DNA of 61,180 nt from a virus: positions 1 to 61,180 of the IMG/VR virus record IMGVR_UViG_3300023099_000001; one strand, given 5' to 3'. Below, piece after piece: positions 38,802-61,180 of the stretch. Position 1 is the stretch's first letter; each line of letters begins with the position of its first letter. The position numbers and the translations under genes were made by a program. Under the pieces are notes generated by a model. It was not told the DNA's origin. It saw nothing but the letters and a program-made list of their open reading frames with translations, and searched no databases.

Positions 38802-38896
38802 CCACTTCCCGGTAACGGGCAGCGCAACAATCGGCGCGATAAAAGACATGAGGTTAGCGGCCTCAGGTGAAGTCCTCACTGACGAATGGACAATTT

Positions 38897-38968
38897 GGGA
38901 CTATAGCTCAGAGGAAGAGCATTCGCCTGTCGAGCGAAAGGTCGCGGTATCGTAATCCGTTAGTCTCG
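38897..38968 (+). tRNA. tRNA-Asp(GTC), non-canonical T arm (U53-U61), CCA encoded
   Basis: GGGACTA/TAGTCTC; stem TTCGC/GCGAA; loop CTGTCGA; T arm GCGGT-ATCGTAA-TCCGT. Confidence 0.65.
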
Positions 38969-38972
38969 CCAA

Positions 38973-39045
38973 GTCGCATTAGGATAGCGGTTAATCCACT
39001 TGATTCTCAGTCAAGATACCGAGGGTTCGAATCCCTCATGCGATA
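38973..39045 (+). tRNA. tRNA-Glu(CTC)
   Basis: GTCGCAT/ATGCGAT; stem CTTGA/TCAAG; loop TTCTCAG; T arm GAGGG-TTCGAAT-CCCTC. Confidence 0.7.
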
Positions 39046-39046
39046 C

Positions 39047-39120
39047 GCTCCGTTGGTCTAGCGGTTAGGATGCCGGGCTTTCACCCCGTGCGAACGTCGG
39101 TTCGAATCCGACACGGAGTA
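39047..39120 (+). tRNA. tRNA-Glu(TTC)
   Basis: GCTCCGT/ACGGAGT; loop CTTTCAC; T arm GTCGG-TTCGAAT-CCGAC. Confidence 0.7.
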
Positions 39121-39122
39121 CG

Positions 39123-39150
39123 ATAGCACAGTACACCCTGTGCTATTTTT
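39123..39150 (+). terminator. rho-independent terminator inside the tRNA array
   Basis: ATAGCACAG-tacacc-CTGTGCTAT followed by TTTT. Confidence 0.7.
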
Positions 39151-39165
39151 AGTCAGTGGAGTATA

Positions 39166-39249
39166 ATGGATAACAGTACAGAGAACATCGACGGATTTGC
39201 TTGCCCAATTGATCCTATGGAAGCCTTGCAATGCGAGTCTTGCCAGTGA
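39166..39249 (+). CDS. micro-ORF (27 aa, Cys-containing)
   Basis: GGAG-tata-ATG; hand translation MDNSTENIDGFACPIDPMEALQCESCQ. Confidence 0.3.
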   Translation: MDNSTENIDGFACPIDPMEALQCESCQ

Positions 39250-39255
39250 TATAAT
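39247..39255 (+). promoter_or_regulatory. extended -10 element (TGaTATAAT) 8 nt before tRNA-Tyr
   Basis: The predicted start site would fall at or next to the mature tRNA 5' end. Confidence 0.4.
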
Positions 39256-39263
39256 TAAATAAC

Positions 39264-39345
39264 GGCGCGTTACTCAAGCGGTTAACGAGGTCTGACTGTA
39301 AATCAGATGTGTAATGCTACGGGAGTTCGAATCTCTCACGCGCCA
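39264..39345 (+). tRNA. tRNA-Tyr(GTA), class II
   Basis: GGCGCGT/ACGCGCC; stem TCTGA/TCAGA; loop CTGTAAA; 13-nt variable arm. Confidence 0.8.
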
Positions 39346-39405
39346 CGCAGTAGCTGAAGTGTTGCAACGGGACTAACTGAATAACTCCCTATTGCTGCTG
39401 CACTT

Positions 39406-39478
39406 GCCCCTTTAGCTCAAACGGTAGAGCATTGGTCTGAAACGCCGAGGGTTGTTGGTTCGAATCCAATGGGGGGCA
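39406..39478 (+). tRNA. tRNA-Phe(GAA)
   Basis: GCCCCTT/GGGGGGC; loop CTGAAAC; T arm GTTGG-TTCGAAT-CCAAT. Confidence 0.75.
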
Positions 39479-39483
39479 CGCAT

Positions 39484-39556
39484 GCCTGTGTACCCCAATG
39501 GCAGAGGGACAGCACTTAAAATGCTTTCAGTAAGGGTTCGAGTCCCTTGACAGGTA
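39484..39556 (+). tRNA. class-I-shaped tRNA with anticodon TAA (UUA-Leu codon)
   Basis: GCCTGTG/GACAGGT; loop CTTAAAA; only a 5-nt variable region; T arm AAGGG-TTCGAGT-CCCTT. Confidence 0.55.
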
Positions 39557-39574
39557 CGTTACAATTAAACATAT

Positions 39575-39655
39575 GGCTCATTGGTGGAATGGTATACACG
39601 CTAGTCTTAGGAACTAGTGCCGAAAGGTATAAGAGTTCGAATCTCTTATGGGCTA
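39575..39655 (+). tRNA. tRNA-Leu(TAG), class II
   Basis: GGCTCAT/ATGGGCT; stem CTAGT/ACTAG; loop CTTAGGA; 13-nt variable arm. Confidence 0.75.
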
Positions 39656-39669
39656 CTCGTAGGAAAATA

Positions 39670-39740
39670 AAAGCTATAGTGTAGTGGAAGCGCGCCGGGC
39701 CGTTAACCCGGAAGTGGGAGTTCGATTCTCTCTAGCAAAA
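39670..39740 (+). tRNA. tRNA-Asn(GTT)-like, acceptor pairs 1-3 all A-A, C33
   Basis: AAAGCTA/TAGCAAA; stem CCGGG/CCCGG; loop CCGTTAA; canonical D and T arms. Possibly a pseudogene. Confidence 0.4.
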
Positions 39741-39817
39741 AGTGGTGTATACTGCACACGTAAGCGCTCCCTGTTTGGTACGGGGGAAGCGGGACGAGGA
39801 CTACCGCATAGAAACGG

Positions 39818-39846
39818 TAGACACTACGATTCATTTAGTGTATAAT
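39818..39846 (+). promoter_or_regulatory. promoter (TAGACA-17 nt-TGTATAAT; TAGTGTATAAT copy)
   Basis: -35 at 39818-39823, 17-nt spacer, extended -10 at 39839-39846, 6 nt before ATG 39853. Confidence 0.55.
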
Positions 39847-39852
39847 AGGAGA

Positions 39853-39921
39853 ATGATGATTAAGCAGCAAACGAAATGCTCGGGCATAGGTAATACTGTC
39901 CGCGCCCTGTTTGCTGCCTAA
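39853..39921 (+). CDS. micro-ORF (22 aa), possibly leaderless
   Basis: MMIKQQTKCSGIGNTVRALFAA; followed by a terminator. Confidence 0.3.
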   Translation: MMIKQQTKCSGIGNTVRALFAA

Positions 39922-39942
39922 AAGTTCTTAGAACTACTTGAC

Positions 39943-39973
39943 AGCCTATAGGGAAACCTGTAGGCTATTTTTA
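39943..39973 (+). terminator. rho-independent terminator
   Basis: AGCCTATAGG-gaaa-CCTGTAGGCT followed by ATTTTTAT. Confidence 0.7.
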
Positions 39974-39991
39974 TAACTACACACAGCAAAT

Positions 39992-40073
39992 GGAGACACG
40001 CATGGGAGAGCTTATGCGTCTTGAAAACGTTGATGACCGCAAGGTTGTGGGGGTTCGAGTCCCTCTGTCTCCG
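39992..40073 (+). tRNA. tRNA-Ser(TGA), class II, atypical D arm
   Basis: GGAGACA/TGTCTCC; loop CTTGAAA; variable arm GACC-gcaa-GGTT; T arm GGGGG-TTCGAGT-CCCTC. Confidence 0.6.
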
Positions 40074-40123
40074 CAATAGGTTAGGAAGCCCTGAGTTCCA
40101 GAACAGCACCGACACCTAGATTT

Positions 40124-40206
40124 GGAATCATGGCAGAGCGGTAATGCAGCACCCTGCTAAGGTGTACAGCCTCACGGTTGCGAAGGTTCGATTCCTTCTG
40201 GTTCCG
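40124..40206 (+). tRNA. tRNA-Ser(GCT), class II
   Basis: GGAATCA/TGGTTCC; stem GCACC/GGTGT; loop CTGCTAA; long variable arm. Confidence 0.75.
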
Positions 40207-40229
40207 CTTGACAACTAAATAATAACTAA

Positions 40230-40301
40230 CCCCCTGTAGCTCAGAGGCAGAGCACCGGACTTTTAATCCGAGGGCCGAGATTTCAAAATTCTCTGGGGGG
40301 A
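40230..40301 (+). tRNA. tRNA-Lys(TTT), non-canonical T arm (U53-U61)
   Basis: CCCCCTG/TGGGGGG; loop CTTTTAA; T arm GAGAT-TTCAAAA-TTCTC. Confidence 0.6.
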
Positions 40302-40395
40302 CAAACTCGACACACGGAGCGCTCTGTGCTAGAGTTAGGTACGTTGGACCGGACTGGTGCAATTCAAGCTAAGGTTTCCGCAACGTACCGATCTT

Positions 40396-40466
40396 GCCTT
40401 ATTGATGTAGAAGTAACATACTAGTCTTCCAAACTAGGTTCGCGGTGGCAGAATCCGCATAAGGCT
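40396..40466 (+). tRNA. tRNA-Gly(TCC), non-canonical T arm
   Basis: GCCTTAT/ATAAGGC; stem CTAGT/ACTAG; loop CTTCCAA; T arm GCGGT-GGCAGAA-TCCGC. Confidence 0.6.
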
Positions 40467-40485
40467 CTTGATAACTAAATAACAT

Positions 40486-40558
40486 GCCGAATTAGCTCAT
40501 CAGGTAGAGCAGGTATCTTGTAAATATCAGGTGGTCAGTTCGAGTCTGACATTCGGCC
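40486..40558 (+). tRNA. tRNA-Thr(TGT)
   Basis: GCCGAAT/ATTCGGC; loop CTTGTAA; T arm GTCAG-TTCGAGT-CTGAC. Confidence 0.8.
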
Positions 40559-40560
40559 CC

Positions 40561-40628
40561 GGTTCACGTTCTGGGAACAAGCATCCTTTACACGGAAGCT
40601 CCGCAGAGTCCGATTCTCTGGTGAACTA
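40561..40628 (+). tRNA. tRNA-Val(TAC), short D arm
   Basis: GGTTCAC/GTGAACT; loop TTTACAC; T arm CAGAG-TCCGATT-CTCTG. Confidence 0.55.
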
Positions 40629-40778
40629 CGCAATACGTCTTAGCATGGTGTAAGCCTGAAGCTAAGAACTATACAGGAACTTACATTCCGTGGTATAGTC
40701 GAGTCAAAGGATACTCGTAATCATCCGGCGCTGATAGTTTATGGTACAACGCATGAAGCATAATGAACCGTACAACAT

Positions 40779-40850
40779 TGGAGTGTGGCGCAGCGGCAGC
40801 GCAGGAAACTGTTAATTTCTTGGTCGTAGGTTCGAATCCTACCATTCCAG
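40779..40850 (+). tRNA. tRNA-Asn(GTT)
   Basis: TGGAGTG/CATTCCA; D arm GCGC/GCGC; loop CTGTTAA; T arm GTAGG-TTCGAAT-CCTAC. Confidence 0.75.
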
Positions 40851-40870
40851 CTTTACAATTAAATATCAAT

Positions 40871-40942
40871 GCCTTATTAGCTCAGCGGAAGAGCTTGCGC
40901 CTACGGAGCGTAGAGTCGGGAGTTCGAATCTCTCATAGGGCA
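40871..40942 (+). tRNA. tRNA-Arg(ACG)
   Basis: GCCTTAT/ATAGGGC; loop CTACGGA; T arm GGGAG-TTCGAAT-CTCTC. Confidence 0.8.
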
Positions 40943-41023
40943 CGAAAGGCTGTGTGGTAGGTATCTCAGACGCTCCCGATAACGGAGACAGTAGATCACA
41001 GTGAAGAAACACCCTACCGACAA

Positions 41024-41095
41024 TGCCCGCTGGTGTAACCGGCAACACGACTGGCTCTGAATCAGTTATTTCTAGTTCGAATCTAGGGTGGGCAG
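41024..41095 (+). tRNA. tRNA-Gln(CTG)
   Basis: TGCCCGC/GTGGGCA (U1-A72); loop CTCTGAA; T arm TCTAG-TTCGAAT-CTAGG. Confidence 0.75.
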
Positions 41096-41105
41096 CGCTT
41101 GACAT

Positions 41106-41177
41106 ACCCCGTTGGTGTAGCGGCAGCACGCGAGCCTTTGGAACTCGTAGGGCGTGGTTCGAATCCACGGTGGGGTG
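41106..41177 (+). tRNA. tRNA-Gln(TTG)
   Basis: ACCCCGT/GTGGGGT; loop CTTTGGA (31-39 C-A mismatch); T arm CGTGG-TTCGAAT-CCACG. Confidence 0.65.
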
Positions 41178-41197
41178 CTCTGATAATTTAATAACAC

Positions 41198-41269
41198 GCC
41201 CCTCTAACTCAGAGGCAGAGTATTCCCCTCTTAAGGGAAGAGTCGAGATTTCGAAATTCTCGGGGGGCA
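41198..41269 (+). tRNA. tRNA-Lys(CTT), non-canonical T arm (U53-U61)
   Basis: GCCCCTC/GGGGGGC; stem TTCCC/GGGAA; loop CTCTTAA; T arm GAGAT-TTCGAAA-TTCTC. Confidence 0.65.
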
Positions 41270-41270
41270 C

Positions 41271-41344
41271 TGTCCTAGGGCCGAACGGTTTGACGGCATG
41301 AAGCTTATAACTTCACGGACAGGGTTCAATTCCCTGTGGGACTA
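41271..41344 (+). tRNA. tRNA-Ile(TAT)
   Basis: TGTCCTA/TGGGACT (1-72 U-U); D stem GCCG/CGGC; stem TGAAG/CTTCA; loop CTTATAA. Confidence 0.55.
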
Positions 41345-41345
41345 C

Positions 41346-41417
41346 GGTAGTGTGCGTGAGTGGCTAGCGCGCTGATTGCAAACCAGTTGTACGCCTGTTC
41401 GAATCAGGTCACTACCT
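41346..41417 (+). tRNA. tRNA-Cys(GCA)
   Basis: GGTAGTG/CACTACC; U73; loop TTGCAAA; T arm GCCTG-TTCGAAT-CAGGT. Confidence 0.75.
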
Positions 41418-41436
41418 CTTGATAATTTAATAGCAA

Positions 41437-41508
41437 GCCTCTATAGCTCAATGGAAGAGCAACGGTTTTCTAGGCCATAGGTTGCGGGTTCGAATCCTGC
41501 TAGGGGTA
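41437..41508 (+). tRNA. tRNA-Arg(TCT)
   Basis: GCCTCTA/TAGGGGT; loop TTTCTAG; T arm GCGGG-TTCGAAT-CCTGC. Confidence 0.7.
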
Positions 41509-41566
41509 CTGGGTGCTACCTATGGCGGTAGTTAAATGTCGGCATCGTCCCTACAGCCCTTATTAA

Positions 41567-41640
41567 AGCCGTTTAGCTCAGTAGGTTAGAGCGCTGTGCT
41601 GATAACACAGAGGTCCGCAGTTCAAATCTGCGAATGGCTA
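41567..41640 (+). tRNA. tRNA-Ile(GAT)
   Basis: AGCCGTT/AATGGCT; stem CTGTG/CACAG; loop CTGATAA; T arm CGCAG-TTCAAAT-CTGCG. Confidence 0.8.
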
Positions 41641-41648
41641 CGTTATGG

Positions 41649-44458: not shown

Positions 44459-44727
44459 CTTTCTTTTGCCGCCTTTAGTTTAGCTGTGAGCACTGGCTGA
44501 GCACCTACCTTTGTGGAAAAGTCTCCCTGAAAACCGGCTTCACATTCTAGGCTGTGTAGTCTGACATCATCTACAAGTACGATATCTGCATCAGCAATTC
44601 GCCACACAGTGCCAGAGCTTATTACGTTAACTTTGTTGCCTTCTGGATCGCTAAAACTTTCGGACCAAAAAACAAGATCACCAACCCTAAACACTGTAGG
44701 TACTCGGCTCATAGCAAATCTCCCCAA
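44443..44727 (-). CDS. hypothetical protein (94 aa)
   Basis: ORF track. Confidence 0.55.
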   Translation of the reverse strand: MGRFAMSRVPTVFRVGDLVFWSESFSDPEGNKVNVISSGTVWRIADADIVLVDDVRLHSLECEAGFQGDFSTKVGAQPVLTAKLKAAKESWYQK

Positions 44728-45482
44728 CTACGTCCGTACGAAAATTCGCTCAGGTACGGCACTTTGTCACCGAACACGGCTTCTCCGGTCAGTCTAAACT
44801 CCGATTGTATACGCTTACCTATGATATCCGCAAGTGTCCATGCCGCAGGATCAGCACCCGGAATTTCCACGAGGATAGCGTCATGCACAAGGGCCACGAT
44901 GTGCGCGCCTTGCTCTTTAATCCACGGGTGAACTCTTATAGCGGTTACCAAACAAATGTCAGAGCTAATCGCCTGCGGCATAAAAGACAACGCTTCGCGC
45001 TCGATGTTACCCTTGTTTTTGTGTGTAATGATTTCGCTTTGAAAACGCCGACCAAATGGTGTAAGTAGGTATTGATCACGGAGAGTTTCGTCTGTTGCAG
45101 CGCGCTTGACATTCACACGCCATTCAGCAAATTTCTCTGCTGTTGTCAAGTAGTTGTCAATAATAGCTTGCGCCTCGCGGACAGTGATGCCAAGCTCTAC
45201 TGCAATTGCTTTAGCTTCGCGGCCAAACGCTAGTCCGTACTGCACAGTCTTTACTTTGACGCGGAATTCTTTCTTAGCCGTCTTGTCAATGTTGTGCACG
45301 TCAACATTAGGGAAACAAATGGGCATCATGTAATTGTCGAAGAAATCCCCGGCACCTTCGCGTAAGGCGTTCAGCATCCAAGGGTCGTCAGATAGTGCCG
45401 CCATTGTTCGTAGTTCCGCTTGGCTGAGGTCTACTTGTAAGAGCGTCACGTCTTGCCTGCTTTCTTTCCTTGTCTGGATCAC
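44709..45482 (-). CDS. DNA polymerase I (family A), C-terminal fragment (motifs A, B, C)
   Basis: GTG start preceded by a stop. VDLSQAELRTMAALS (motif A), KTVQYGLAFG (motif B), VALVHDAILVE (motif C). Confidence 0.85.
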   Translation of the reverse strand: MIQTRKESRQDVTLLQVDLSQAELRTMAALSDDPWMLNALREGAGDFFDNYMMPICFPNVDVHNIDKTAKKEFRVKVKTVQYGLAFGREAKAIAVELGITVREAQAIIDNYLTTAEKFAEWRVNVKRAATDETLRDQYLLTPFGRRFQSEIITHKNKGNIEREALSFMPQAISSDICLVTAIRVHPWIKEQGAHIVALVHDAILVEIPGADPAAWTLADIIGKRIQSEFRLTGEAVFGDKVPYLSEFSYGRSWGDLL

Positions 45483-45744
45483 GAGTTATATAAGTGTTTG
45501 CAAGGTCTTGCGCGTGGTGAGGGAATGTATTTGTAGTATTCCAGCGCCCACCGGGAGTATAGTTCTGTATATAACGAATAGTTCTTTGCGCACTATAACC
45601 TACCAATCTCCACTCTTCTAGCAGTATACCCAGCACTTTAATTTTGTGCTTTTGGCGTTTGATTTTAGCGCGCAGGCGTAAGATTTCTTCTGCCATTTGA
45701 AGTTCAAGCTCGGTAGGATTACGAGGTATCAAGTCATCCACCAT
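45388..45744 (-). CDS. hypothetical protein within the polymerase split (118 aa from ATG 45744)
   Basis: ATG overlaps the stop of 45734-46093 (ATGGTGGATGA). Coiled-coil-like; the 3' end overlaps the polymerase C-fragment. Confidence 0.45.
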   Translation of the reverse strand: MVDDLIPRNPTELELQMAEEILRLRAKIKRQKHKIKVLGILLEEWRLVGYSAQRTIRYIQNYTPGGRWNTTNTFPHHAQDLANTYITRDPDKERKQARRDALTSRPQPSGTTNNGGTI

Positions 45745-46093
45745 CAGGTAATACAACTCCCGTACCGTTTTCGTGACGGTTACCGTCACTGTCATACCAG
45801 ATAATAGTGTTGTGGTCTGTCGGACCCATGTCTGGGTAAATTGTCTTCCAAAACTCTGCGTTCACTGCGGGATCATTGCTGTGTGAGCAGGGAAATCTGT
45901 GGTTGACTGCGCCGGGACAGCGTTTGTTGCCGCACTCAGGGCATAGTGTCATCCATGACCCGCCTTGCATAAACGCTTCGAAAGGGTCAGCAGGCCGCAC
46001 CCACGGCACTTCAGGATCACGCCACGGTGGGCCGCATTTACTGCATGTACACATGTCGAACGGCGTTACTTTGTTTGGATTAATGTCAGCCAT
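45734..46093 (-). CDS. Cys-rich (zinc-finger-like) protein within the polymerase split (119 aa)
   Basis: CTCSKCGPPW...LCPECGNKRCPGAVNHRFPCSH. The ATG lies 3 nt after, and in frame with, the TAG of the polymerase N-fragment. Confidence 0.55.
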   Translation of the reverse strand: MADINPNKVTPFDMCTCSKCGPPWRDPEVPWVRPADPFEAFMQGGSWMTLCPECGNKRCPGAVNHRFPCSHSNDPAVNAEFWKTIYPDMGPTDHNTIIWYDSDGNRHENGTGVVLPDGG

Positions 46094-46096
46094 AAT

Positions 46097-47452
46097 CTAT
46101 CCTATGTAAATCGAGCGAAATTTTGCGTCGCGGGGAATGTTTTGTATGTTCGGGCCTGAGCTTGACAACCTGCCTGTACTCGTACCGTGTACAAGAAATG
46201 TTGTATGCACTCTGCCTTTGCGGGCTTTGTTCAGTGCGCCTGTCACATAGGTAGAGAGTGCTTTACTTACCCCTCTGTACTCTAACAGTAAATCAATGAA
46301 TACAACAACAGGGTGAGTAGACGAAAAGTTGGCCCTATACTTTGTCAAATGTTTTTCATCTGTACTGTCCGTGTAAGCGGTACCAGAGAATGAAGTCAGA
46401 ACAGTTTGGACTTGCTGCCATGAACCGGGATTAAATAGCTTGTTTGTTTTGAACACAACGCCGCTAGTAAGCGTCTGAAGTTTAGAAAGTAGGTCGTCTA
46501 CTTCAAATGCCATATCGTTTTCAAGATTCTGCGTATAAGGCACATCAATAGCGAAACCGAACTGCTCCACATCCAGCAGGAAATCTGCGGCCTTCATTTC
46601 CAGTAGGAAAGCTTTCTGCGCTTCATCATCAGCGAAGATAAGCGGCTCAAGATACTTCCAAAGCTCATACGTCCAGTACACATCCCACATGTTGTACTCA
46701 TTCAGGATGTGTGCGGGCACGTTCTCGTAGTAGGCACCGCCTACCGTCCATTTAGACAGGTCAGCTTCCCACTCGGGGGCACCCAAATACATTCTGCACA
46801 GTGGCTTGAGCTTGTGAAGTCCTGCGGCTTGGTTGAGTACGTGGTGCGCAAGCATGGTGTCGAAAAAGTTTGGCATTCTAACGCCAGTGCGTGCTTCTAT
46901 TACACGGATATCGAACTTACCATTATGCCAAATAGGGTACTTGATTTTACGTAGCCACTGTTTAACAGCGGCCATTTCTAGGGGCGTTCTGAAATCCCAG
47001 CACGCCCACATACCCTCTTGATAGAAGCTGATCGAGAGAATGTCAACTTGTTCAGGCGTGTGCTTTTTATCAAGGTCACCAGCAGTCTCAATGTCTACTG
47101 CAATTGGCTTGTCAAGGTCAAACCTGTCTAAGCCACCCTGAATAACTCTGGTAGGGTGAACCTTTTGGGGTAGATAAAACTGGTTCAGGGCGGCTTTCAG
47201 GACGCTTACAGCATTGGCTTTTGTACATATTTGCGCAAGGCTGTAAGTGTGGACAAGCTGGCTGCCTGTTTGTATGGCATTTAAGGCAATTCTACCCATA
47301 GGATCAACTATAGTACCAAAGATTAAAACTCTGGGTTCGTGAATACCACTAAACGAGGCGTAGTTTTTGGGGTCTAGGTTATGAATTCTAAAGGTGTTCG
47401 GCGGGTATTGGTCGATGACACCTTTGATAATATCAAAAGCATCCTGAGTCAT
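46097..47452 (-). CDS. DNA polymerase I (family A), N-terminal fragment (3'-5' exonuclease, thumb, motif 2a; start at ATG 47452)
   Basis: IAVDIETAG (Exo I); HNGKFDIRV; TGRLSSSGPNIQNIPRDAKFRSIYIG then TAG. Confidence 0.85.
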   Translation of the reverse strand: MTQDAFDIIKGVIDQYPPNTFRIHNLDPKNYASFSGIHEPRVLIFGTIVDPMGRIALNAIQTGSQLVHTYSLAQICTKANAVSVLKAALNQFYLPQKVHPTRVIQGGLDRFDLDKPIAVDIETAGDLDKKHTPEQVDILSISFYQEGMWACWDFRTPLEMAAVKQWLRKIKYPIWHNGKFDIRVIEARTGVRMPNFFDTMLAHHVLNQAAGLHKLKPLCRMYLGAPEWEADLSKWTVGGAYYENVPAHILNEYNMWDVYWTYELWKYLEPLIFADDEAQKAFLLEMKAADFLLDVEQFGFAIDVPYTQNLENDMAFEVDDLLSKLQTLTSGVVFKTNKLFNPGSWQQVQTVLTSFSGTAYTDSTDEKHLTKYRANFSSTHPVVVFIDLLLEYRGVSKALSTYVTGALNKARKGRVHTTFLVHGTSTGRLSSSGPNIQNIPRDAKFRSIYIG

Positions 47453-47459
47453 GGGTTGC

Positions 47460-47879
47460 TCAGAGTAAATCGGTACCTGTATAACCACTGAGACTCCTAG
47501 AAATTTGTGAAAGCGTAAGACCTGTAAACTTAGCAACAATTCTACGTGAGTTACCGTCAAGAATTGCGCCATGCAGCAGGTGAACATTGATAGGTCGCCC
47601 GTTGTTTAAGTTTAGTCGTAGCTGCAACAAGGTGTCAAGGCTCTTCGGGTTAAACTTTCCGGTACCTTTGCGTGGCATTTCAATGCCAAAACCTCTGATG
47701 GTACTGGCAGACCAACCTGACAGTTGCACCAGATGACCTGTGCTGAACAGTCCCCACTCGTTCAGCGACACTAACGCTTCGTAACGTTGCTGCTTTGACA
47801 TAAATTTGCTGCGTTCGTAAAGGTATTTTGCCTCTGTCATTGCCTTTACATAATCAGCATTACTCAGTTGTACCTGCAA
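47460..47879 (-). CDS. putative DNA-binding protein (139 aa)
   Basis: ORF track; HTH-like segments. Confidence 0.5.
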   Translation of the reverse strand: MQVQLSNADYVKAMTEAKYLYERSKFMSKQQRYEALVSLNEWGLFSTGHLVQLSGWSASTIRGFGIEMPRKGTGKFNPKSLDTLLQLRLNLNNGRPINVHLLHGAILDGNSRRIVAKFTGLTLSQISRSLSGYTGTDLL

Positions 47880-50076: not shown

Positions 50077-50110
50077 AACCTACCCTTAGCTTGAATTATA
50101 AATGTCTATG

Positions 50111-50184
50111 TCTCTCACCTGAGATTCGAACTCAGATCGCACACCGTTTGAAGGTGCCGCCTCTACCATTTGGGCTAGCGAGAG
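50111..50184 (-). tRNA. class-I-shaped tRNA with anticodon CAA (UUG-Leu codon), isolated on the minus strand
   Basis: Reverse complement: CTCTCGC TA GCCC-AAATGGTA-GAGGC GCACC-TTCAAAC-GGTGT GCGAT CTGAG-TTCGAAT-CTCAG GTGAGAG A. Confidence 0.6.
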
Positions 50185-55322: not shown

Positions 55323-55922
55323 TTAGAAGTGCGCCTTCTCGCCGGAACGAGTCATCGAAATGAACTGCCCCAACTGCTCAGCCATACGCTTCATACCGTC
55401 CTCATCAAACGGCTCAAGGATTGCCACAGACTTGTCAAGCCCCAACTGCGGCAGCGCCTGCTGCAAACCAGAAGCAGAACCAGCAGACAAGAAAGCAAAA
55501 TCCCAGCCAGCCTTATTCAGTCGCTTAGTAGTCTGGGGAAGGTCACGCGCGCGATGCGTGATGTCGTATTCACTCACACCATCACTAGCGAAAATAACCA
55601 CAACATGACCCGGCTTCTCATTCTCTGGCATCTTGTTTACTTTTGCCTCGAAATTGTCAATGATAGTGGCGCTGCTATCAAACATGGACGTACCGCCGCT
55701 AGCAAACATGCTCAGATGTACAGTCATAGGGTCAGCATCTGCCTCACCCCAGTAAGGGTCGTCATCAAAGTATGTTACATCAACTGTGATGTAACCAGCG
55801 AGTTTGCGCGCCTGCTGCTCAAGCATCATGTGCATAGCGTCTTCCATCAGGTGAAAGTGCCCCCCCATAGAGCCGGACACGTCAAGGATGAAAAGGACTG
55901 CGGTGTAGTTAGGGTTGCTCAT
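55323..55922 (-). CDS. von Willebrand factor A (vWA) domain protein
   Basis: MIDAS motif FILDVSGSMGG; 199 aa. Confidence 0.8.
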   Translation of the reverse strand: MSNPNYTAVLFILDVSGSMGGHFHLMEDAMHMMLEQQARKLAGYITVDVTYFDDDPYWGEADADPMTVHLSMFASGGTSMFDSSATIIDNFEAKVNKMPENEKPGHVVVIFASDGVSEYDITHRARDLPQTTKRLNKAGWDFAFLSAGSASGLQQALPQLGLDKSVAILEPFDEDGMKRMAEQLGQFISMTRSGEKAHF

Positions 55923-57397
55923 GTGGAGTGATTACCTTTTGTTTGGGAGCCTAGTGAGTTATTCAAGCTTAGCCGCTTAGCTAACTGCTTGTCAATGATT
56001 TCCTGATCGTATGTTCCCGGTACAATGAAACGGTACCGTGTAACACGTTCTGATCTTACCGTGCTGGGGCGGGGAAGTCTACCCTTAGCCTGAGTATTCA
56101 TGAACAAATTATCGGAGTCGCTGAACCAAAATTCTGTGCTACACAGGTCTTGGAGTCCGTCTGTGCCTTCGGCTATTGCTTCCACGACTGCGACAATGAC
56201 CTGATATCCTCCGGCTTTCCCCCACGTCGCCAAAGCATCTGCGCGAGCCTTATCAGATGTACCCCCAATCCAAGCGAACGCATTGTAACCCCTCTGTGTG
56301 AATCTATGCGCCGCGACACTAGCAAATTCCCTGCTGTGAGTAAATACAAGCACAGGCTCCAATACTGGGAGGTCACCCATAACTTCCATAGCCTCATCAA
56401 GTTTTGAACTGTACGTGTCAACATTGTATGCGACCTTTCCAACTTCATTGAAGGCTGGCGCACCTAGGGTGATTTGACGCAGCCTGATCCTAGTTACAGC
56501 CCGAAGCTCGGACACTGACGGTAGCTTACCAGTAAGTGGGTCCGGCGTGTCAAGCCACATAATTTCTTCCTCTACCATTTGCTTGTAGAGTTTCTTCTGT
56601 GCTGGTGACAACTTACATTCAATATCAACAACCAGCGGTTCTTCTAGCCCGAGGTCGTCGCCTTCGTGAATATAATTATCATAGTAGGAGAGCATTGTGC
56701 CCTCTTCGTAGCGTTCACCCTCAATGGTCGTGAACCCCAACCATTCGTCCTCAACCTGAATAAGCCAATCGCCCACCCAATTCCAGAAACTGCGCGGCGT
56801 ACCATACACGCCGTACTTAGGGTCGTAGCTACCGTCTTTGATAAGATGCTCAGGGAACAACCAACGCAGAGTCGTCCAAGCACCTTGCATTTTATTGCCA
56901 ACAAACGTACCCGACATAGCAACACGTTTTGTATTTGTCTTGCCAACATTGCGCATGTTAGCCCACGACTTAGAGTTACGGTTCTGCATACGGTGGCATT
57001 CGTCTGCCACAACCATGTCAACATCAGTCTTGTTCCAGAAACCTTCTGGGCGTAACGCAAAATATTGCCATGTAACAAAATACCAACCGGGCACACCGTT
57101 CCAGAAATCTTGCATCGCCTGTTTACCGGGCACTGTGCTATTGATCCAACGTACAAGCATAGGGTCAGTGTAGTCTTGATACTGTCGGCGTACTGTGCGT
57201 TCCCAGCCTGAGTACGTATTACGTGGAGCAACAATAAGGACACGTTTCAGCTTCAGCCTGTACGCAGCTTCTACAGCGGTAGTTGTTTTACCTTGTGCAA
57301 GACCTAGCGCATACAGCACCGACTCTTCCCGCATCAAAACTTGACAGTATTGTTCCTGCCGTGGTCTGAGAGTCAGTCTACTTTCGGTCGCTATCAA
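55919..57397 (-). CDS. SNF2/DEAD-like helicase (TTG start, uncertain)
   Basis: Motif I LGLAQGKTT; motif II VVADECHRMQN; helicase C-domain. Confidence 0.8.
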   Translation of the reverse strand: MIATESRLTLRPRQEQYCQVLMREESVLYALGLAQGKTTTAVEAAYRLKLKRVLIVAPRNTYSGWERTVRRQYQDYTDPMLVRWINSTVPGKQAMQDFWNGVPGWYFVTWQYFALRPEGFWNKTDVDMVVADECHRMQNRNSKSWANMRNVGKTNTKRVAMSGTFVGNKMQGAWTTLRWLFPEHLIKDGSYDPKYGVYGTPRSFWNWVGDWLIQVEDEWLGFTTIEGERYEEGTMLSYYDNYIHEGDDLGLEEPLVVDIECKLSPAQKKLYKQMVEEEIMWLDTPDPLTGKLPSVSELRAVTRIRLRQITLGAPAFNEVGKVAYNVDTYSSKLDEAMEVMGDLPVLEPVLVFTHSREFASVAAHRFTQRGYNAFAWIGGTSDKARADALATWGKAGGYQVIVAVVEAIAEGTDGLQDLCSTEFWFSDSDNLFMNTQAKGRLPRPSTVRSERVTRYRFIVPGTYDQEIIDKQLAKRLSLNNSLGSQTKGNHST

Positions 57398-57531
57398 CGT
57401 AGTTTCTCCGAATCCACAGTGCTGCTGCTACCACTGTTGCGAGGGCTACAATGATGACAATACCCAGTAGAACACCACGAGGACCAAGGCCTACGAAGCC
57501 GGGCCAACCTGCTGCAATTGCTCTGAACATT
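57379..57531 (-). CDS. small membrane protein (50 aa)
   Basis: Hand translation MFRAIAAGWPGFVGLGPRGVLLGIVIIVALATVVAAALWIRRNYVDSDRK. Confidence 0.45.
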
Positions 57532-57559
57532 TGTTTTACCTTTGTTAGTTTAATATCAA

Positions 57560-57624
57560 GTGCGCGGACAGGAATCGAACCTGTGTTTGGGCTTACGCCC
57601 TGTCTACCACTGAACTACCGCGCG
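57560..57624 (-). ncRNA. anticodon-less tRNA-like RNA (initiator-tRNA-like acceptor/T arm; GNRA tetraloop in place of the anticodon loop)
   Basis: Reverse complement: CGCGCGG TA GTTC-AGTGGTA-GAC A GGGC-GTAA-GCCC AAAC ACAGG-TTCGATT-CCTGT CCGCGCA C. Confidence 0.6.
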
Positions 57625-57637
57625 ATACTGCTTTGTG

Positions 57638-58561
57638 TTACTTAGCGCCGATGAACGGCGTTGAACCATCCGGCACCACATAAACGGTACCTTCACCAAG
57701 TGAATCGATGTACTTCTGCTGAAGCAGGAGCGGAGTCAAAGAATCATTGATTAGGCGGTTAGCTTCAGCCTGCGCTGTCGCGGTTGCCACAAGCTGCTGC
57801 GCTTCAATTTCTTTAGCGCGCAACTCAGCTTCCTGCTTCAGAACATTCTGGTTAGAAACCTCAACAGCCTTCAAAGCCTCTTCAACAGCTTCAGGATAGG
57901 TTACCATCTGAATGTTCACAAAGTCAACAGCCACACCCAGCGGCTTCAACTTAGCATTGAGAAGATCGAGCATTGATTCTGCTGCTTCGGCACGCTTGTC
58001 ACCACGGAATTCAACAGCCGTGTAGTCGGACGGAACCTGACGAATAATTGACAAAACGGTCTTCTCAATTACCTGCTTCGTGAAACGTTCCTGTGACTTG
58101 TACTTCTCGTACAGGGACACAACCTTGTCAGCGTCAAGGCTGTATGTTACGGAAATGTCAATGTCGGCCTGCGTGCTGCCACCATTGATACCACCAACAG
58201 CCGTTGTCACTTCATAACCGCTCACAGTACCGCCTGTGTAGGCTGGCTGCCCGTCACCGTTACCGGCATAAACCAGTTCCTGTGAGAACAAGTCGTAATC
58301 GATAACGTCCTGCCACGGTGCCTTCCAGCCAGAACCGGGAGTCAATCGCGGCTCACCAGCTAGCGTACCATCAACATTCACGAACACTTTAGCCTCACCG
58401 ACACTGTTGGTGTAGTACGAGCTTGAAATCAACACAATACCACCAGCAACCGCTGCGACGATAGCAATAATGACCGGAAAGAATTCCCTAACCATGACTG
58501 CTGCAATAATTGCGATCAGTGCGATAACGAACAGCACAATCGCGATAACAAAAGCTACCAT
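57638..58561 (-). CDS. SPFH/band-7 (prohibitin/stomatin-like) membrane protein
   Basis: Two N-terminal TM helices, an SPFH core, and a C-terminal Ala/Glu coiled coil (EAELRAKEIEAQQLVATATAQAEA). Confidence 0.75.
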   Translation of the reverse strand: MVAFVIAIVLFVIALIAIIAAVMVREFFPVIIAIVAAVAGGIVLISSSYYTNSVGEAKVFVNVDGTLAGEPRLTPGSGWKAPWQDVIDYDLFSQELVYAGNGDGQPAYTGGTVSGYEVTTAVGGINGGSTQADIDISVTYSLDADKVVSLYEKYKSQERFTKQVIEKTVLSIIRQVPSDYTAVEFRGDKRAEAAESMLDLLNAKLKPLGVAVDFVNIQMVTYPEAVEEALKAVEVSNQNVLKQEAELRAKEIEAQQLVATATAQAEANRLINDSLTPLLLQQKYIDSLGEGTVYVVPDGSTPFIGAK

Positions 58562-58587
58562 TTATTTTCCTCTTTTTGTTGGGTTTT

Positions 58588-58872
58588 TTACTCTCGAATC
58601 GAAATTTTTTCCGACCCGAAATTTTCCGCGCGGGGGCCTTGCCAGCTACCGTGCTTAAGTTTTAGTTGCTTGTAATACGAAAGCACAGTAATCAGATCAT
58701 CAATGTCTTGATCTTTTATATATACTTCGCGTCCGCTATCCGGTCTTACGGGATCACTGACACCTACAAATGCTCCACCTGCCGTTTGGGGAACAAAGCG
58801 TAACGTTGGACTTAGGTCATATTCCTGACCCCACACATTATAACAAAAATCGGAATTAGCCTCGTTATACAT
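58588..58872 (-). CDS. small protein, C-terminal D-L-x-x-A-L-x-Y-Y helix family (dispersed copy)
   Basis: ...DQDIDDLITVLSYYKQLKL...; 35 nt identical to 2977-3011. The C-terminal 25 aa run through a conserved intergenic-type motif, so the true stop may be earlier. Confidence 0.55.
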   Translation of the reverse strand: MYNEANSDFCYNVWGQEYDLSPTLRFVPQTAGGAFVGVSDPVRPDSGREVYIKDQDIDDLITVLSYYKQLKLKHGSWQGPRAENFGSEKISIRE

Positions 58873-59828
58873 CAGTAGTTACTCCGGCGCTTTCTAGTGC
58901 GGTTACGCTGGATACGTAAGAACGGACGGCCAACCTTCAAAGGAACTTCGGTAAACCGCTGCTCACGAGTAATCATGCCTGCAATTTCTTTCTCGATTTT
59001 ATCGAAATCGGCATCCAGCTTCGTCAAGTCGTTATCATACGTGTAACCCTGCTCAGTGTCATCAGGAGCGTAAGGCATGTAACCGCCGACATAAATACTG
59101 ATACCATCGTCAGGGTCCGCATAGTTGCTTGCCAAAGAAATGTCATCGTAGTCCACCGCGTCACCGTAACCGAACTCCCACGTAGGAGACTGCTCAGCGA
59201 TCAGCAGGCAAGTGCGGCGCATGAAATCTGGGTGCATAGCCACCGCAAGGTGATTCAAGTCAAACGGGTCTTGATGCTCTTTCACAGTCACCACCACGTT
59301 TGCAGCATCAGTGAACAGCAGGCACCGTACCTGCGTGCGGATACCGTACTGCTCAAGCCAGTCCACCAGACGCAGAATACGCTTCTGCTTGTGAATCATG
59401 TACTCGGCTGTAGTCCACTTTGCGGCAGCCAGATTTACGGTAATGCGGGCGAAAATGCGTGCCGGGTTACCCATGATGCTGTTACCGAAATCTTCGGGGT
59501 CACCTTCCATTGTCTTACCAATGTCAAGGTAATCACCGGTCACATCATAGAACACATCGTTGCCGGGGTTATCGTCCGTGCGCAGCTTGTCGTCTTTCTG
59601 CGAAAACTGGCGAATGCGCCACGGCTCATTCAGAAACACGTTGTGTGCATGTTCCAGTGAATCGAAGATCAGGTATTCCCCATCACCGGGGATGTCGCTT
59701 GCCATTGCACGCGCCGGTCCCCAACCTTCACGGTCGATCAGACGGAACAGCGCGGGGATGCTTTCGGTGGCGACAAACAGCGTACCCTCGTCGTCAGTGT
59801 CAACCATTGTTGCGCGAATTTTAGACAT
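58872..59828 (-). CDS. hypothetical protein (318 aa) adjacent to the AAA+ ATPase
   Basis: ORF track; no motif recognised. Confidence 0.6.
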   Translation of the reverse strand: MSKIRATMVDTDDEGTLFVATESIPALFRLIDREGWGPARAMASDIPGDGEYLIFDSLEHAHNVFLNEPWRIRQFSQKDDKLRTDDNPGNDVFYDVTGDYLDIGKTMEGDPEDFGNSIMGNPARIFARITVNLAAAKWTTAEYMIHKQKRILRLVDWLEQYGIRTQVRCLLFTDAANVVVTVKEHQDPFDLNHLAVAMHPDFMRRTCLLIAEQSPTWEFGYGDAVDYDDISLASNYADPDDGISIYVGGYMPYAPDDTEQGYTYDNDLTKLDADFDKIEKEIAGMITREQRFTEVPLKVGRPFLRIQRNRTRKRRSNY

Positions 59829-59833
59829 GTTGT

Positions 59834-60079
59834 TTAGCTATCCTTTGAAGTCTCGTTTTGTCCAGTGTATAGCTCAGGTGCCGAATACACAACAGCTTTC
59901 ATACGAATTTCTAGAATGATTTTGTCGTGGTGTTCTTGATCTATCACAGATTTATAGTCTCTCATTTTCATGTAAGCGTGAGCCATTGAACCCCAAGAAG
60001 TCCTGCTTAGCAGTCCGTCTTTAAAATTAACCATACGCGGATAAACGCAACTAAACTCATACGTTATTTCTGCGTTCAT
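59834..60079 (-). CDS. small protein, paralog of 60076-60408
   Basis: ITYEFSCVYP...ILEIRMKAVVYSAPELYTGQNE. Confidence 0.55.
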   Translation of the reverse strand: MNAEITYEFSCVYPRMVNFKDGLLSRTSWGSMAHAYMKMRDYKSVIDQEHHDKIILEIRMKAVVYSAPELYTGQNETSKDS

Positions 60080-60408
60080 TTATCCTGCCCTGTGTACTCT
60101 TCCCATTCGGAAACCACAGATACAACGGCTCGGATACGCAGTTTAACAGCATCCCTAAACTCTTGTGTTGCTCGGGGTACTGCCGTGTTTTTAAAGTCAA
60201 GATAACTATTCATAATATCTTGCACTGATCTGGGGCCGTGCCCGCTAGCAGATATTCCTGAAGATTCGGGTGCAAGAGTAACCCATATGTTAGTAGATTT
60301 ATTGGGGTACTCATAGTCACTCGGAACAGTAAGTTCGTACTCGTAAGTCAGTGTATACGCGGGGAGGGCATCAATGCTGGTGCCCTCCCCGTTCTCGTCA
60401 ATATTCAT
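60076..60408 (-). CDS. small protein, paralog of 59834-60079
   Basis: LTYEYELTVP...VKLRIRAVVSVVSEWEEYTGQDK. Confidence 0.55.
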   Translation of the reverse strand: MNIDENGEGTSIDALPAYTLTYEYELTVPSDYEYPNKSTNIWVTLAPESSGISASGHGPRSVQDIMNSYLDFKNTAVPRATQEFRDAVKLRIRAVVSVVSEWEEYTGQDK

Positions 60409-60414
60409 GACTAC

Positions 60415-61180
60415 TTACTCGTTTACTTCGCCCTCAAAAGCGGACACCAAATCGTCAAGATCAGTTTCCTTAGCGACACGCTCACGGCCCGCCTTGCCCT
60501 GCTTAGGAGCACCCTTAGCCCACGTTGCGTTAGCGAGGTTCAGCAGAACCTCACGCTCAGCCTCAGGCATGTTGGCGATAAGAGCCACCTGCACGGCTTC
60601 CTCATACGTCACCCCCGCCTCAAGCAACGTAGCACCACGCAGAGTTGACCGTGGAGAGACAACCGCACGCAATTCAAGCTTGTTGATGGCTTCGTCACGC
60701 ACAGCACGCACAACACGCAACCAACGCTGGCCGTAGGTGGGGCTGATACCAGAAATCGCTTCCTCAATCTGATCGTCAATGTCCCACGTAATAACAGTGA
60801 AGCGGTCAAGCGTTGCCGCGTCAAGCTGGTTACGTCCCACATACTGACGGCTTGCACCGTTACCATACGTGTTCGCGGTCGCTACCATGCGGAAATCGTC
60901 GTGCATCTTCGACATGACACCATTCGGGAAAAACACGTAACCGTTAGACAGGGCCGCGTTCAACCCCACCAGCACGTTAGCGTTACCCGCGTCAGCTTCA
61001 TCAAGGAGAAACACACCACCGTTGACATACGCCTTATAGAAAGCTGTCTCGTGGAAGTGACCCTGCGCATCCTTGTAACCAAAGATGTCGCTCTTCGAAG
61101 TCTGAGAACCGACAGAAATTGCGTAGAAGTCAAGCCCCAACGCAGTAGCCGCATCCTCAGCGCCCTTAGTCTTACCAGTA
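60415..61180 (-). CDS. AAA+ ATPase (MoxR/CobS-like), C-terminal part; same gene as 1-609
   Basis: VFLLDEADAGN (Walker B), sensor/arginine region. The frame stays open to the window end and is identical to 1-127 over the overlap. Confidence 0.85.
   Translation of the reverse strand, partial: TGKTKGAEDAATALGLDFYAISVGSQTSKSDIFGYKDAQGHFHETAFYKAYVNGGVFLLDEADAGNANVLVGLNAALSNGYVFFPNGVMSKMHDDFRMVATANTYGNGASRQYVGRNQLDAATLDRFTVITWDIDDQIEEAISGISPTYGQRWLRVVRAVRDEAINKLELRAVVSPRSTLRGATLLEAGVTYEEAVQVALIANMPEAEREVLLNLANATWAKGAPKQGKAGRERVAKETDLDDLVSAFEGEVNE
61054..61180. repeat. 127-nt exact terminal overlap with 1-127
   Basis: Identical string at both window ends. Confidence 0.95.

Follow-up and report, generated by a model that had tools for sequence, protein, structure and literature searches.

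We describe a transfer RNA (tRNA)-like element that presents no anticodon, encoded immediately downstream of a gene for an SPFH/Band-7 membrane protein in an actinophage. The window analysed here, a stretch of 61,180 nucleotides (nt) covering positions 1 to 61,180 of IMG/VR record IMGVR_UViG_3300023099_000001, is essentially the whole of a 61.2-kb metagenomic contig (47% G+C), and the element lies on its minus strand at positions 57560 to 57624. It folds as a tRNA, it is placed within an operon, and elements of its kind recur at the SPFH junction of related and distant actinophages. Comparative data favor a role that would depend on the acceptor/T-arm half of the molecule, and we consider it highly probable that the element is functional and non-decoding rather than a random relic. 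What that function might be is a matter for more reserve: our leading proposal, to which we give slightly less than an even chance, is that the element is a tRNA mimic cut from the operon transcript and acting mainly as an mRNA boundary signal.

Read 5' to 3' from position 57624 to position 57560, the element is CGCGCGG-TA-GTTC-AGTGGTA-GAC-A-GGGC-GTAA-GCCC-AAAC-ACAGG-TTCGATT-CCTGT-CCGCGCA-C. Its parts are as follows.

Positions 57560 to 57624, minus strand: the whole tRNA-like element, 65 nt, without an anticodon loop (match to Rfam RF00005, fold).
Positions 57618 to 57624, minus strand: 5' strand of the acceptor, CGCGCGG; G2 to G7 pair with positions 57562 to 57567, and C1 is opposite an A (57561) or unpaired.
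Positions 57602 to 57615, minus strand: D arm, GTTC-AGTGGTA-GAC, with three pairs and one bulged U; A14, G15, and G18-G19 lie in the loop.
Positions 57589 to 57600, minus strand: the stub that replaces the anticodon arm, GGGC-GUAA-GCCC, four G-C pairs closed by a GNRA tetraloop.
Positions 57568 to 57584, minus strand: T arm, ACAGG-TTCGATT-CCTGT, fully canonical by direct reading and by model alignment.
Positions 57560 to 57567, minus strand: 3' strand of the acceptor, CCGCGC, followed by A and C; this is N73-C74 without CA, as in the genuine tRNA genes of the phage.

The resemblance to tRNA is far beyond chance. The element matches the Rfam tRNA family (RF00005) end to end (model positions 1 to 71) with 36.1 bits against a gathering score of 29; the E value of 4.3e-6 applies to a local search of a 401-nt stretch around the element and scales to ~7e-4 for the whole window. 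The element was not listed in an Rfam run of the whole window at gathering thresholds, presumably because of speed filters. When aligned to the tRNA covariance model, it fills the anticodon-loop slot with only 4 nt, and the 3' strand of its D stem is one base short. In the minimum free energy fold (−24.7 kcal/mol, z = −2.2), the acceptor and the T arm are formed, the D stem has 3 bp, and GGGC/GCCC closes as a tetraloop hairpin. Direct reading of the sequence finds the nucleotides of the tRNA core and elbow complete: U8, A14, G15 with C48, G18-G19, A21, the G53-C61 pair, and T54-T55-C56 with A58. Measured against a canonical tRNA, the T arm, the T loop, and the GG of the D loop are as expected, and the anticodon arm is not, being a 4-bp stem with a 4-nt GUAA loop in place of a 5-bp stem with a 7-nt loop. 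The acceptor consists of six pairs and a C·A or unpaired end, which gives an acceptor/T stack of 11 rather than 12 bp, and the D stem consists of three pairs and a bulge. ARAGORN called 24 tRNAs in the window and passed over the element, because the place of its anticodon arm is taken by a 4-bp stem with a GUAA cap.

A first-pass annotation made from the sequence alone had drawn this fold on the minus strand with the correct sequence and coordinates, and its placement between the SPFH gene and a small hydrophobic open reading frame (ORF), its GNRA-capped stub that can present no anticodon, and its fully canonical T arm are all borne out by our analysis. It had also expected that tRNA finders would make no call or a pseudogene call; ARAGORN made none, and Rfam scored the element weakly as a tRNA. 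The covariance-model search that it proposed matched the tRNA model above threshold and, in the local search, gave no match at E <= 10 to transfer-messenger RNA (tmRNA). Three of its details need amendment. The D-arm sequence was given correctly, but the stem has only three pairs and a bulged U; the acceptor strands CGCGCGG and CCGCGCA were likewise right, but they form six pairs with a terminal C·A or unpaired end rather than seven. The 3' end reads A-C-T-T, so that CCA is indeed not encoded, as claimed, but C74 is, as in almost all tRNA genes of this phage.

The phage is an actinophage: it carries a WhiB gene, and its nearest cultured relatives, detectable at the protein level only, are Microbacterium, Curtobacterium, and Arthrobacter phages. 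Searches of 50,697 phage records with megablast and blastn returned zero matches to the region of the element at the DNA level. The element sits within a long minus-strand replication operon in the order SPFH gene, element, small ORF, helicase gene, and we found no promoter-like or terminator-like sites between the SPFH gene and the genes downstream of it. The features of the window that bear on the element are these.

Positions 57638 to 58561, minus strand: SPFH/Band-7 membrane protein gene (PF01145); its stop lies 13 nt upstream of the element, and it is the conserved neighbor.
Positions 57378 to 57530, minus strand: hydrophobic ORF of 50 amino acids; its ATG lies 29 nt past the element with AAAGG before the start, and it belongs to no Pfam family.
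Positions 55919 to 57397, minus strand: SNF2/DEAD-type helicase gene (Pfam SNF2-rel_dom, ResIII, and DEAD), next in the minus-strand operon.
Positions 50110 to 50184, minus strand: genuine tRNA-Leu(CAA) between protein genes of the same operon (ARAGORN, Rfam).
Positions 38558 to 38632, plus strand: tRNA-Met(CAU), which has C1:A72 and encodes ACCA; no other paralog comes closer to the top half of the element.

The phage is rich in tRNA genes, with ~26 in 61 kb by ARAGORN and Rfam combined, most of them in a plus-strand cluster at 38.3 to 41.7 kb. The tRNA-Leu(CAA) embedded in the minus-strand operon indicates that the phage probably expresses tRNAs from within mRNA operons. Nearly all of the tRNA genes (positions 38386 to 41641 and 50110 to 50184) encode N73-C74 and leave out C75-A76; only the Trp, Met, and Asp genes encode the full CCA. 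This N73-C74-only layout suggests a particular route of 3' maturation in the host. Pfam scans of 30 ORFs of the window identified no phage-encoded tRNA-processing or RNA-repair enzymes, and the sole candidate among those ORFs was a calcineurin-like phosphoesterase adjoining the tRNA cluster.

That the element is more than a curiosity of one contig is seen from the loci of SPFH homologs, which we drew from IMG/VR, JGI metagenomes, Logan/ENA assemblies, GTDB genomes, and GenBank phages. A tRNA-like element begins 6 to 15 nt past the SPFH/Band-7 stop in about 17 of about 37 distinct phage or prophage loci, a count that combines strict and by-eye calls. A strict mechanical scan, requiring a fully paired 11- to 12-bp acceptor/T stack and a T-loop motif no more than 200 nt past the SPFH stop, was positive at 11 of 35 SPFH loci, against a background in the same DNA of 0.0115 per scanned interval (binomial P = 1.5e-13), and it misses at least six further cases that can be seen by eye. 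The linkage spans three deeply diverged lineages: the clade of the window phage, Microbacterium phage Count (~35% identity), and Mycobacterium phage Send513 (~20% identity). ARAGORN made no call on any of the SPFH-linked relative elements tested. An intact tRNA after SPFH is seen in none of the relatives; the first-pass annotation had named an intact tRNA-fMet at this locus in homologous phages, combined with random decay elsewhere in this copy, as one of two findings that would favor a simple pseudogene, and what the relatives carry instead are other anticodon-less versions whose acceptor and T arms are intact. In the remaining relatives, among them Micrococcales bacterial genomes, the homologous position is taken by a terminator-like hairpin or by a promoter-like sequence, and this exchange of signals at one position marks the 3' junction of the SPFH gene as a transcript boundary. 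No tRNA-like element was found beside the SPFH homologs of the Micrococcales bacterial genomes.

The SPFH-linked elements are built in a bevy of different ways. That of locus L009 has an acceptor of the C1·A72 type, perfect D and T arms, and an Rfam tRNA score of 40.4 bits; in it, a 4-bp hairpin with a 5-nt loop and a second hairpin (a 32-nt insert) replace the anticodon arm. L163 encodes a full cloverleaf whose 5-bp stem bears a 5-nt "anticodon" loop, and L026 has a 5-7-5 arm with C33 and C37. In L164 an 8-nt linker joins the D arm to the T arm, and in L029 (Rfam tRNA, 31.5 bits) both the D arm and the anticodon arm are gone, leaving an acceptor, one tetraloop hairpin, and a T arm. A long stem replaces both arms in L001, L034, and L036, which encode ACCA; the element of L008 has two T arms, and that of L010 a long insert. 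At four further SPFH sites (L012, L013, L031, and L037) we find minis of ~45 nt with no D stem and no anticodon arm. Two cultured phages have the same arrangement. Gene product (gp) 78 of Send513 is a Band_7 protein (Pfam E = 1.2e-16), and a mini begins 7 nt past its stop; in Count, an element with a 6-bp acceptor, a 6-bp T arm, the loop TTCAAGT, and an AC tail also lies 7 nt past the SPFH homolog. The Count element occupies positions 1988 to 2057 of L290 (~37727 to 37796 of MH153801), and the Send513 or Papyrus element lies at ~61294 to 61335 of NC_042033.

A common rule underlies these forms. The acceptor and T stems change sequence between loci yet stay paired, the 3' end is almost always AC, and the acceptor/T stack and T loop are kept; the middle varies freely, and the anticodon branch is shortened, replaced, or absent. 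Selection acts on the top half (acceptor/T arm) only.

Several features of these loci deserve mention in their own right. The annotated start of Send513 gp79, a nucleoside deoxyribosyltransferase (L287, positions 2507 to 3040), falls within the mini, and an in-frame start at 2579 with GGAG before it is more plausible. In Count, the annotated tRNA-Arg(agg) downstream of SPFH (gene 50; L290, positions 2221 to 2291) has no Rfam tRNA match at E <= 1, and an RtcB-like RNA ligase gene (L290, positions 2797 to 3150) lies ~500 nt past it. A conserved string of genes, comprising an AAA_5 (MoxR/CbbQ-like) ATPase, DUF7192, SPFH, the element, the helicase, and a weakly matched VWA-domain protein, occupies positions 55323 to 61140 of the window (minus strand); the string from AAA_5 to VWA is common to the window, L009, and L029.

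The minis of L012, L013, L031, and Send513 belong to a much larger family. A mini comprises a 5-bp stem, a RAN-GGCAUACA linker, a 6-bp stem with a TTCGAGT loop, and an A/G-C tail. The search pattern GGCATACA-N5-GTTCGNGTCC matched at least 120 contigs in IMG/VR, from GC-rich and AT-rich phages alike, often with two to four copies per contig. Our scans of the collections are biased by their patterns, and counts from them are lower bounds; the GGCATACA linker here, like the D-arm sequence in the scan described below, is fixed by the search pattern, and its invariance carries no evidential weight. The helices covary very strongly. Across 79 distinct copies, 97.6% of helix cells are paired with 280 double-sided changes, and the covariation score is 0.85; shuffling gives 0.18, with none of 500 shuffles reaching the observed value, and sliding the pairing partners gives no more than 0.20. 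Rfam 15 has no family for this form. Representative minis are as follows.

L012, positions 3416 to 3463: mini element.
L013, positions 3487 to 3534: mini element.
L031, positions 2425 to 2472 and 3701 to 3750: two mini elements.
L038 to L157: the set of contigs with mini elements.
L286, positions 2959 to 3003: mini element of cultured Streptomyces phage Joe.
L287, positions 2505 to 2546: mini element of cultured Mycobacterium phage Send513.

Minis are co-oriented with the genes that flank them and often begin 7 to 11 nt past a stop codon; the distance from stop to mini has a 25th percentile of 9 nt and a median of 41 nt under naive ORF calls. In four multicopy contigs examined by eye, what usually comes after the mini is a small hairpin, then a ribosome-binding site and the start of the next gene. 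They are also present in 145 cultured phage records (109 Streptomyces, 25 Mycobacterium, 7 Microbacterium, and 4 cyanophage), at two to six copies each, and are almost never annotated there. A Pfam scan of flanking ORFs for a conserved protein partner gave scattered capsid matches and, in the sample scanned, no enrichment of SPFH. A covariance model built from mini copies (R1) finds the elements of L012, L013, and L031 (two copies); in the window, it returned T-arm fragments only and no full-length mini, and the mini pattern with three mismatches permitted gave zero matches. These searches rule out the window element as a member of the mini family; it may work like the family without belonging to it. 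In some GC-rich contigs (L153, positions 3622 to 4094; L075; L114; L123), arrays of GGCNNGGC-type octamers, with variants such as GGCAAGGC, GGCGAGGC, and GGCATGGC among others, lie upstream of the mini or a related element.

A third architecture is the cloverleaf without an anticodon arm. Searching for D and T arms that lie too close together, with the pattern TAGCTCARTGGNAGAG-N9-21-GGTTCGANTCC, identified at least 120 viral contigs (L166 to L285) with 77 distinct elements, and 70 of the 77 have at least six of seven acceptor pairs. The anticodon arm is absent or is reduced to a 3- to 4-bp stub with a 3- to 5-nt loop. GNRA-capped stubs like that of the window occur in unrelated viral contigs, with CCGA-GGCA-TCGG in L225 and CCT-GCAA-AGG in L173. 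ARAGORN calls only one of the 77, and 25 of them have normal tRNAs no more than 1 kb away. Among distinct downstream ORFs, terminase small subunits make up about a quarter by naive ORF calls, a position that would place the cloverleaf at an operon start. The design of a tRNA minus its anticodon is thus recurrent in viral genomes. Examples follow.

L225, positions ~7847 to 7912: anticodon-arm-less cloverleaf.
L173, positions ~670 to 735: anticodon-arm-less cloverleaf.
L210 and L211: contigs with further anticodon-arm-less cloverleafs.

A different pattern, GGGCGTAAGCCC...GGTTCGANTCC, had a single match in IMG/VR, in L003, which proved to be the variable arm of an ordinary type-II tRNA and was discarded.

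We propose that the window element is a non-decoding tRNA mimic maintained by selection, that it is transcribed as part of the operon that runs from the SPFH gene through the element and the small ORF to the helicase gene, and that it would fold within the transcript into the tRNA L-shape, with its acceptor/T stack, T loop, and D-loop GG intact. The tRNA-maturation enzymes of the host would recognize this shape: RNase P would cut at the 5' side, and processing after A73/C74 would leave a 3' end to be completed by the CCA-adding enzyme, in the manner expected for the tRNA-Leu embedded in the same operon. These cuts would split the SPFH message from the helicase message, a tRNA-type punctuation, and would also release a tRNA-shaped RNA of ~64 nt unable to read a codon. 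The pattern of conservation is what leads us to this scenario. The acceptor/T stack, the T loop with its GG partner, and the purine-C tail are kept while the decoding parts vary, which argues that determinants of tRNA maturation are what matter; the variable or lost parts appear to be all those needed for decoding and by most aminoacyl-tRNA synthetases. The elements lie inside operons at gene boundaries, and relatives have terminators or promoters there, which points to a boundary role. Excision that splits a polycistronic RNA would be the simplest mechanism to link these observations. Taken together, the three phage architectures (capped stub, deleted anticodon arm, and 45-nt mini) could represent widespread, unannotated anticodon-less mimics, recurrent after SPFH/Band-7 genes, that serve as punctuation for host RNase P, RNase Z, and CCA-adding enzyme or else as decoys in trans; we regard this generalization as a serious possibility that stops just short of being probable.

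Mimics of tRNA and tRNA-type processing signals are already known in several systems. The mascRNA of MALAT1, the MEN-beta 3' modules, and the tRNA-like RNAs of murine gammaherpesvirus 68 (MHV68) are non-decoding RNAs cut by RNase P and RNase Z; they receive CCA, have an aberrant anticodon region, and are not aminoacylated. They are eukaryotic nuclear or herpesviral transcripts of RNA polymerase II or III and have no sequence relation to the window element. Mitochondria offer a functional parallel. The t-elements of plant mitochondria are tRNA-like elements in mRNA untranslated regions that are cleaved by RNase P and RNase Z (PMC1920247). Like the window element, they and the tRNA punctuation of mitochondria place a tRNA-like structure beside or between protein genes, with the acceptor/T-arm part mattering and no decoding; they differ in being organellar, with cleavage that is experimental and defines mRNA 5' and 3' ends, whereas the window element is from a phage, would be cleaved only on our reading, and keeps a D arm and a capped stub. 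The tRNA-Other of Bacillus cereus (PMC3399842) is tRNA shaped and non-translational and has a regulatory phenotype; unlike the window element, it is chromosomal, retains its anticodon arm, and acts in another setting. Our literature search, whose coverage was incomplete and which a prior description may have escaped, found no description of phage anticodon-less tRNA-likes, the mini family, or the SPFH association. Rfam 15 matches these phage elements at best as weak tRNAs, and GenBank records leave them blank.

Two further mimics, YrlA and tmRNA, were considered as identities for the element itself. In YrlA (RF02553), a Y RNA partner of Ro60, the tRNA-like module is a circular permutation that runs from T arm through a closed acceptor stem-loop to D arm, with a Ro-binding helix attached, and in Mycobacterium smegmatis this module is cleaved by RNase P and CCA-tailed (PMC4201824). 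YrlA is a tRNA mimic of Actinobacteria and their phages, and there are partial YrlA matches ~600 nt downstream of SPFH in Microbacterium phages A3Wally (L006, positions 4017 to 4078) and Cece (L007, positions 3941 to 4002), the latter adjoining a Ro-like gene. The permutation, the Ro helix, and the neighboring Ro60 gene are all foreign to the window element, whose arms follow the usual tRNA order, whose ends are open, and which carries no additional helix (compare PMC4201824); no TROVE/Ro protein is encoded among the 30 Pfam-scanned ORFs, and the local search gave no YrlA match at E <= 10. The tRNA-like domain of tmRNA, with an acceptor, a T arm, and a D-loop analogue but neither a D stem nor an anticodon, resembles the minis of the relatives. 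In tmRNA, G3:U70 is accompanied by an mRNA-like domain and pseudoknots; the window element pairs C3 with G70, is 65 nt long with no coding part and nothing attached, and received no tmRNA call from ARAGORN or Rfam. An identity as a YrlA-type RNA or as a tmRNA-like rescue RNA is accordingly very improbable. In both A3Wally and Cece, three tRNA genes lie immediately upstream of SPFH. Our searches also recovered a conserved RNA of ~80 nt that resembles a lone tRNA-like domain of tmRNA, GGGCCTGGAA(T)GGTTTCGAC ... GGACAGGGGTTCGAATCCCCTCAGGTCCAC, with G3:U70, one internal hairpin, no coding part, and a weak, partial match to cyano_tmRNA in Rfam. Its copies are listed here.

L046, positions 7989 to 8065: lone tmRNA-domain-like RNA.
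L066, positions 9494 to 9570: lone tmRNA-domain-like RNA.
L131, positions 12170 to 12246: lone tmRNA-domain-like RNA.
L115, positions 8228 to 8305: lone tmRNA-domain-like RNA.
L139, positions 3347 to 3424: lone tmRNA-domain-like RNA.
L047, positions 9906 to 9984: lone tmRNA-domain-like RNA.

The first-pass annotation had likened the element to an initiator tRNA on the strength of a C1-A72 mismatch and a GGG/CCC run, and the acceptor of the window element (CGCGCGG/CCGCGCA) is indeed like that of initiator tRNA-fMet (CGCGGGG/CCCCGCA), with a possible C1·A72 and a GGG/CCC run in its residual stem. The resemblance is only partly supported. The C1-A72 mismatch depends on register, since the same letters read equally well as a 6-bp stem followed by A73-C74, which matches the other tRNAs of the phage. 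Relatives carry a terminal 1:72 non-pair followed by C in the forms C·A (L009 and L031), A·A (L013 and L034), and G·A (L026) with no other initiator trait, which points to a trait of the family rather than to a sign of an initiator. The GGG/CCC run lies in a 4-bp tetraloop hairpin in the window, is CCC/GGG in L009, and is absent from the C1:A72 tRNA-Met of the phage itself. The element also lacks CAU, A11:U24 (its position 11 is U), and A73-CCA. The top half of that tRNA-Met (positions 38558 to 38632) is the best-scoring paralog, though only by a narrow margin (16 against 13 and 12). The element may descend from an initiator-type tRNA; a function as initiator is not supported.

Such descent would fit a decaying tRNA gene, possibly a duplicate of an initiator-type tRNA-Met, that drifts without function. 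The D stem one base short, the acceptor with one pair fewer, the anticodon arm 5 nt short, the phage's own C1:A72 tRNA-Met as closest paralog, and the lack of any near-identical relative that could demonstrate purifying selection on this copy are all compatible with decay. The damage is nonetheless anything but random. All six acceptor pairs and all five T-stem pairs are present, the T loop is canonical, the core is full, and the arm that is missing has been replaced by a perfect GNRA-capped stem of four G-C pairs. About 16 other SPFH loci have differently built anticodon-less elements with intact, covarying top halves, no relative has an intact tRNA at a site that is enriched for anticodon-less elements, and the same type of deletion is shared by at least 120 viral contigs in which 70 of 77 elements keep six or seven of seven acceptor pairs. 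The comparative data thus speak against simple decay, and we judge it improbable. At the first pass, decay had been offered as one of several speculative roles, beside a decoy, a substrate for processing or CCA addition, and a primer. The comparative data do not separate a processing signal from a decoy.

A decoy or sponge acting in trans would be a released, CCA-tailed, anticodon-less RNA that occupies a factor, of the host or of a defense system, binding the tRNA body or acceptor end, and, lacking an anticodon, it would be neither consumed nor harmful to decoding. Candidate targets include a tRNA-targeting toxin or nuclease, a toxin that modifies 3' ends, a tRNA-modification enzyme, and an elongation factor. 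The ~26 tRNAs in 61 kb are compatible with pressure from tRNA-targeting defenses, the complete core (D arm, elbow, and C48) and the stable GNRA closure look as if made for an RNA that is stable when free, unrelated viral contigs repeatedly carry stub-capped cloverleafs, with 25 of the 77 inside tRNA clusters, and a position before highly expressed late genes would raise the dosage. On the other side, the Pfam-scanned ORFs include no partner protein near the element and none that is conserved, we saw no conserved single-stranded motif beyond the needs of the tRNA fold, and both the D arm and the anticodon branch are gone from the minis at this position, so that a nuclease of the anticodon stem-loop could not be the common target. 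The dispersed copies, with their different stems and tight spacing to stops and starts, fit a signal in cis better. We therefore consider a decoy unlikely as the principal role, though it is the alternative that we take most seriously.

The boundary-signal proposal faces difficulties of its own. The closest SPFH homolog of the window phage has 68% identity, and the GNRA stub consequently has no comparison with a close relative. The link to SPFH itself is without a mechanistic explanation. The hairpin seen downstream of many minis is missing at the window element, and the SPFH mRNA, once cut by RNase P, would have no structure to protect its 3' end. A stack of 11 bp with a terminal non-pair in place of 12 bp, together with a weak D stem, means that efficient processing is not guaranteed. 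Finally, a role in cis alone leaves the full D arm and the neat tetraloop stub unexplained, given that 45-nt minis suffice elsewhere. All of these points weigh against our proposal, which we advance tentatively.

Two other readings were set aside. A remnant of integration at an attP site or tRNA fragment was rejected on the grounds that the element retains its D arm and both strands of its acceptor, that no integrase lies nearby, and that relatives are multicopy. The spacing of 7 to 13 nt from the stop suggested a stimulator of readthrough or frameshifting; the in-frame extension of SPFH is 14 residues and stops inside the tetraloop.

Other features of the window are of interest apart from the element. 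Its plus-strand tRNA cluster includes, at positions 39673 to 39736, a tRNA-like sequence with an acceptor of only 4 bp (GCTA/TAGC) between runs of A and the anticodon loop CCGTTAA (C33), which matches the Rfam tRNA model from 4 to 67 with 45.7 bits and receives no ARAGORN call. Between tRNA genes at positions 39992 to 40072 (plus strand), a 7-bp acceptor (GGAGACA/TGTCTCC) and a canonical T arm surround a 50-nt interior without D or anticodon arms; ARAGORN and Rfam both pass over this sequence, whose fold has z = −2.65. Positions 38729 to 38801 (plus strand) hold a likely tRNA-His(GTG) with 51.1 bits in Rfam that ARAGORN missed. On the minus strand, a family-A DNA polymerase at positions 44709 to 47587 is divided between two ORFs with ~600 bp and small ORFs between them: one (46097 to 47587) has the exonuclease domain and polymerase profile positions 11 to 137, and the other (44709 to 45482) has profile positions 150 to 381. 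This may reflect a mobile insertion or a genuinely split gene.

If our interpretation is correct, hundreds of phage RNA elements have been overlooked by standard tRNA finders and by Rfam. Several start codons are now placed inside such elements, that of Send513 gp79 among them, which is of practical concern for annotation. The same arrangement is available in cultured phages, namely, Microbacterium phage Count, Mycobacterium phages Send513 and Papyrus, and Streptomyces phage Joe. Phages would, on this interpretation, borrow the tRNA maturation machinery of their hosts to cut their own mRNAs, as mitochondria do, or would make non-decoding look-alikes of tRNA, and either outcome would bear on the regulation of phage operons, on the reasons that phages carry tRNA-like genes, and on the arms race over bacterial defenses that target tRNA.

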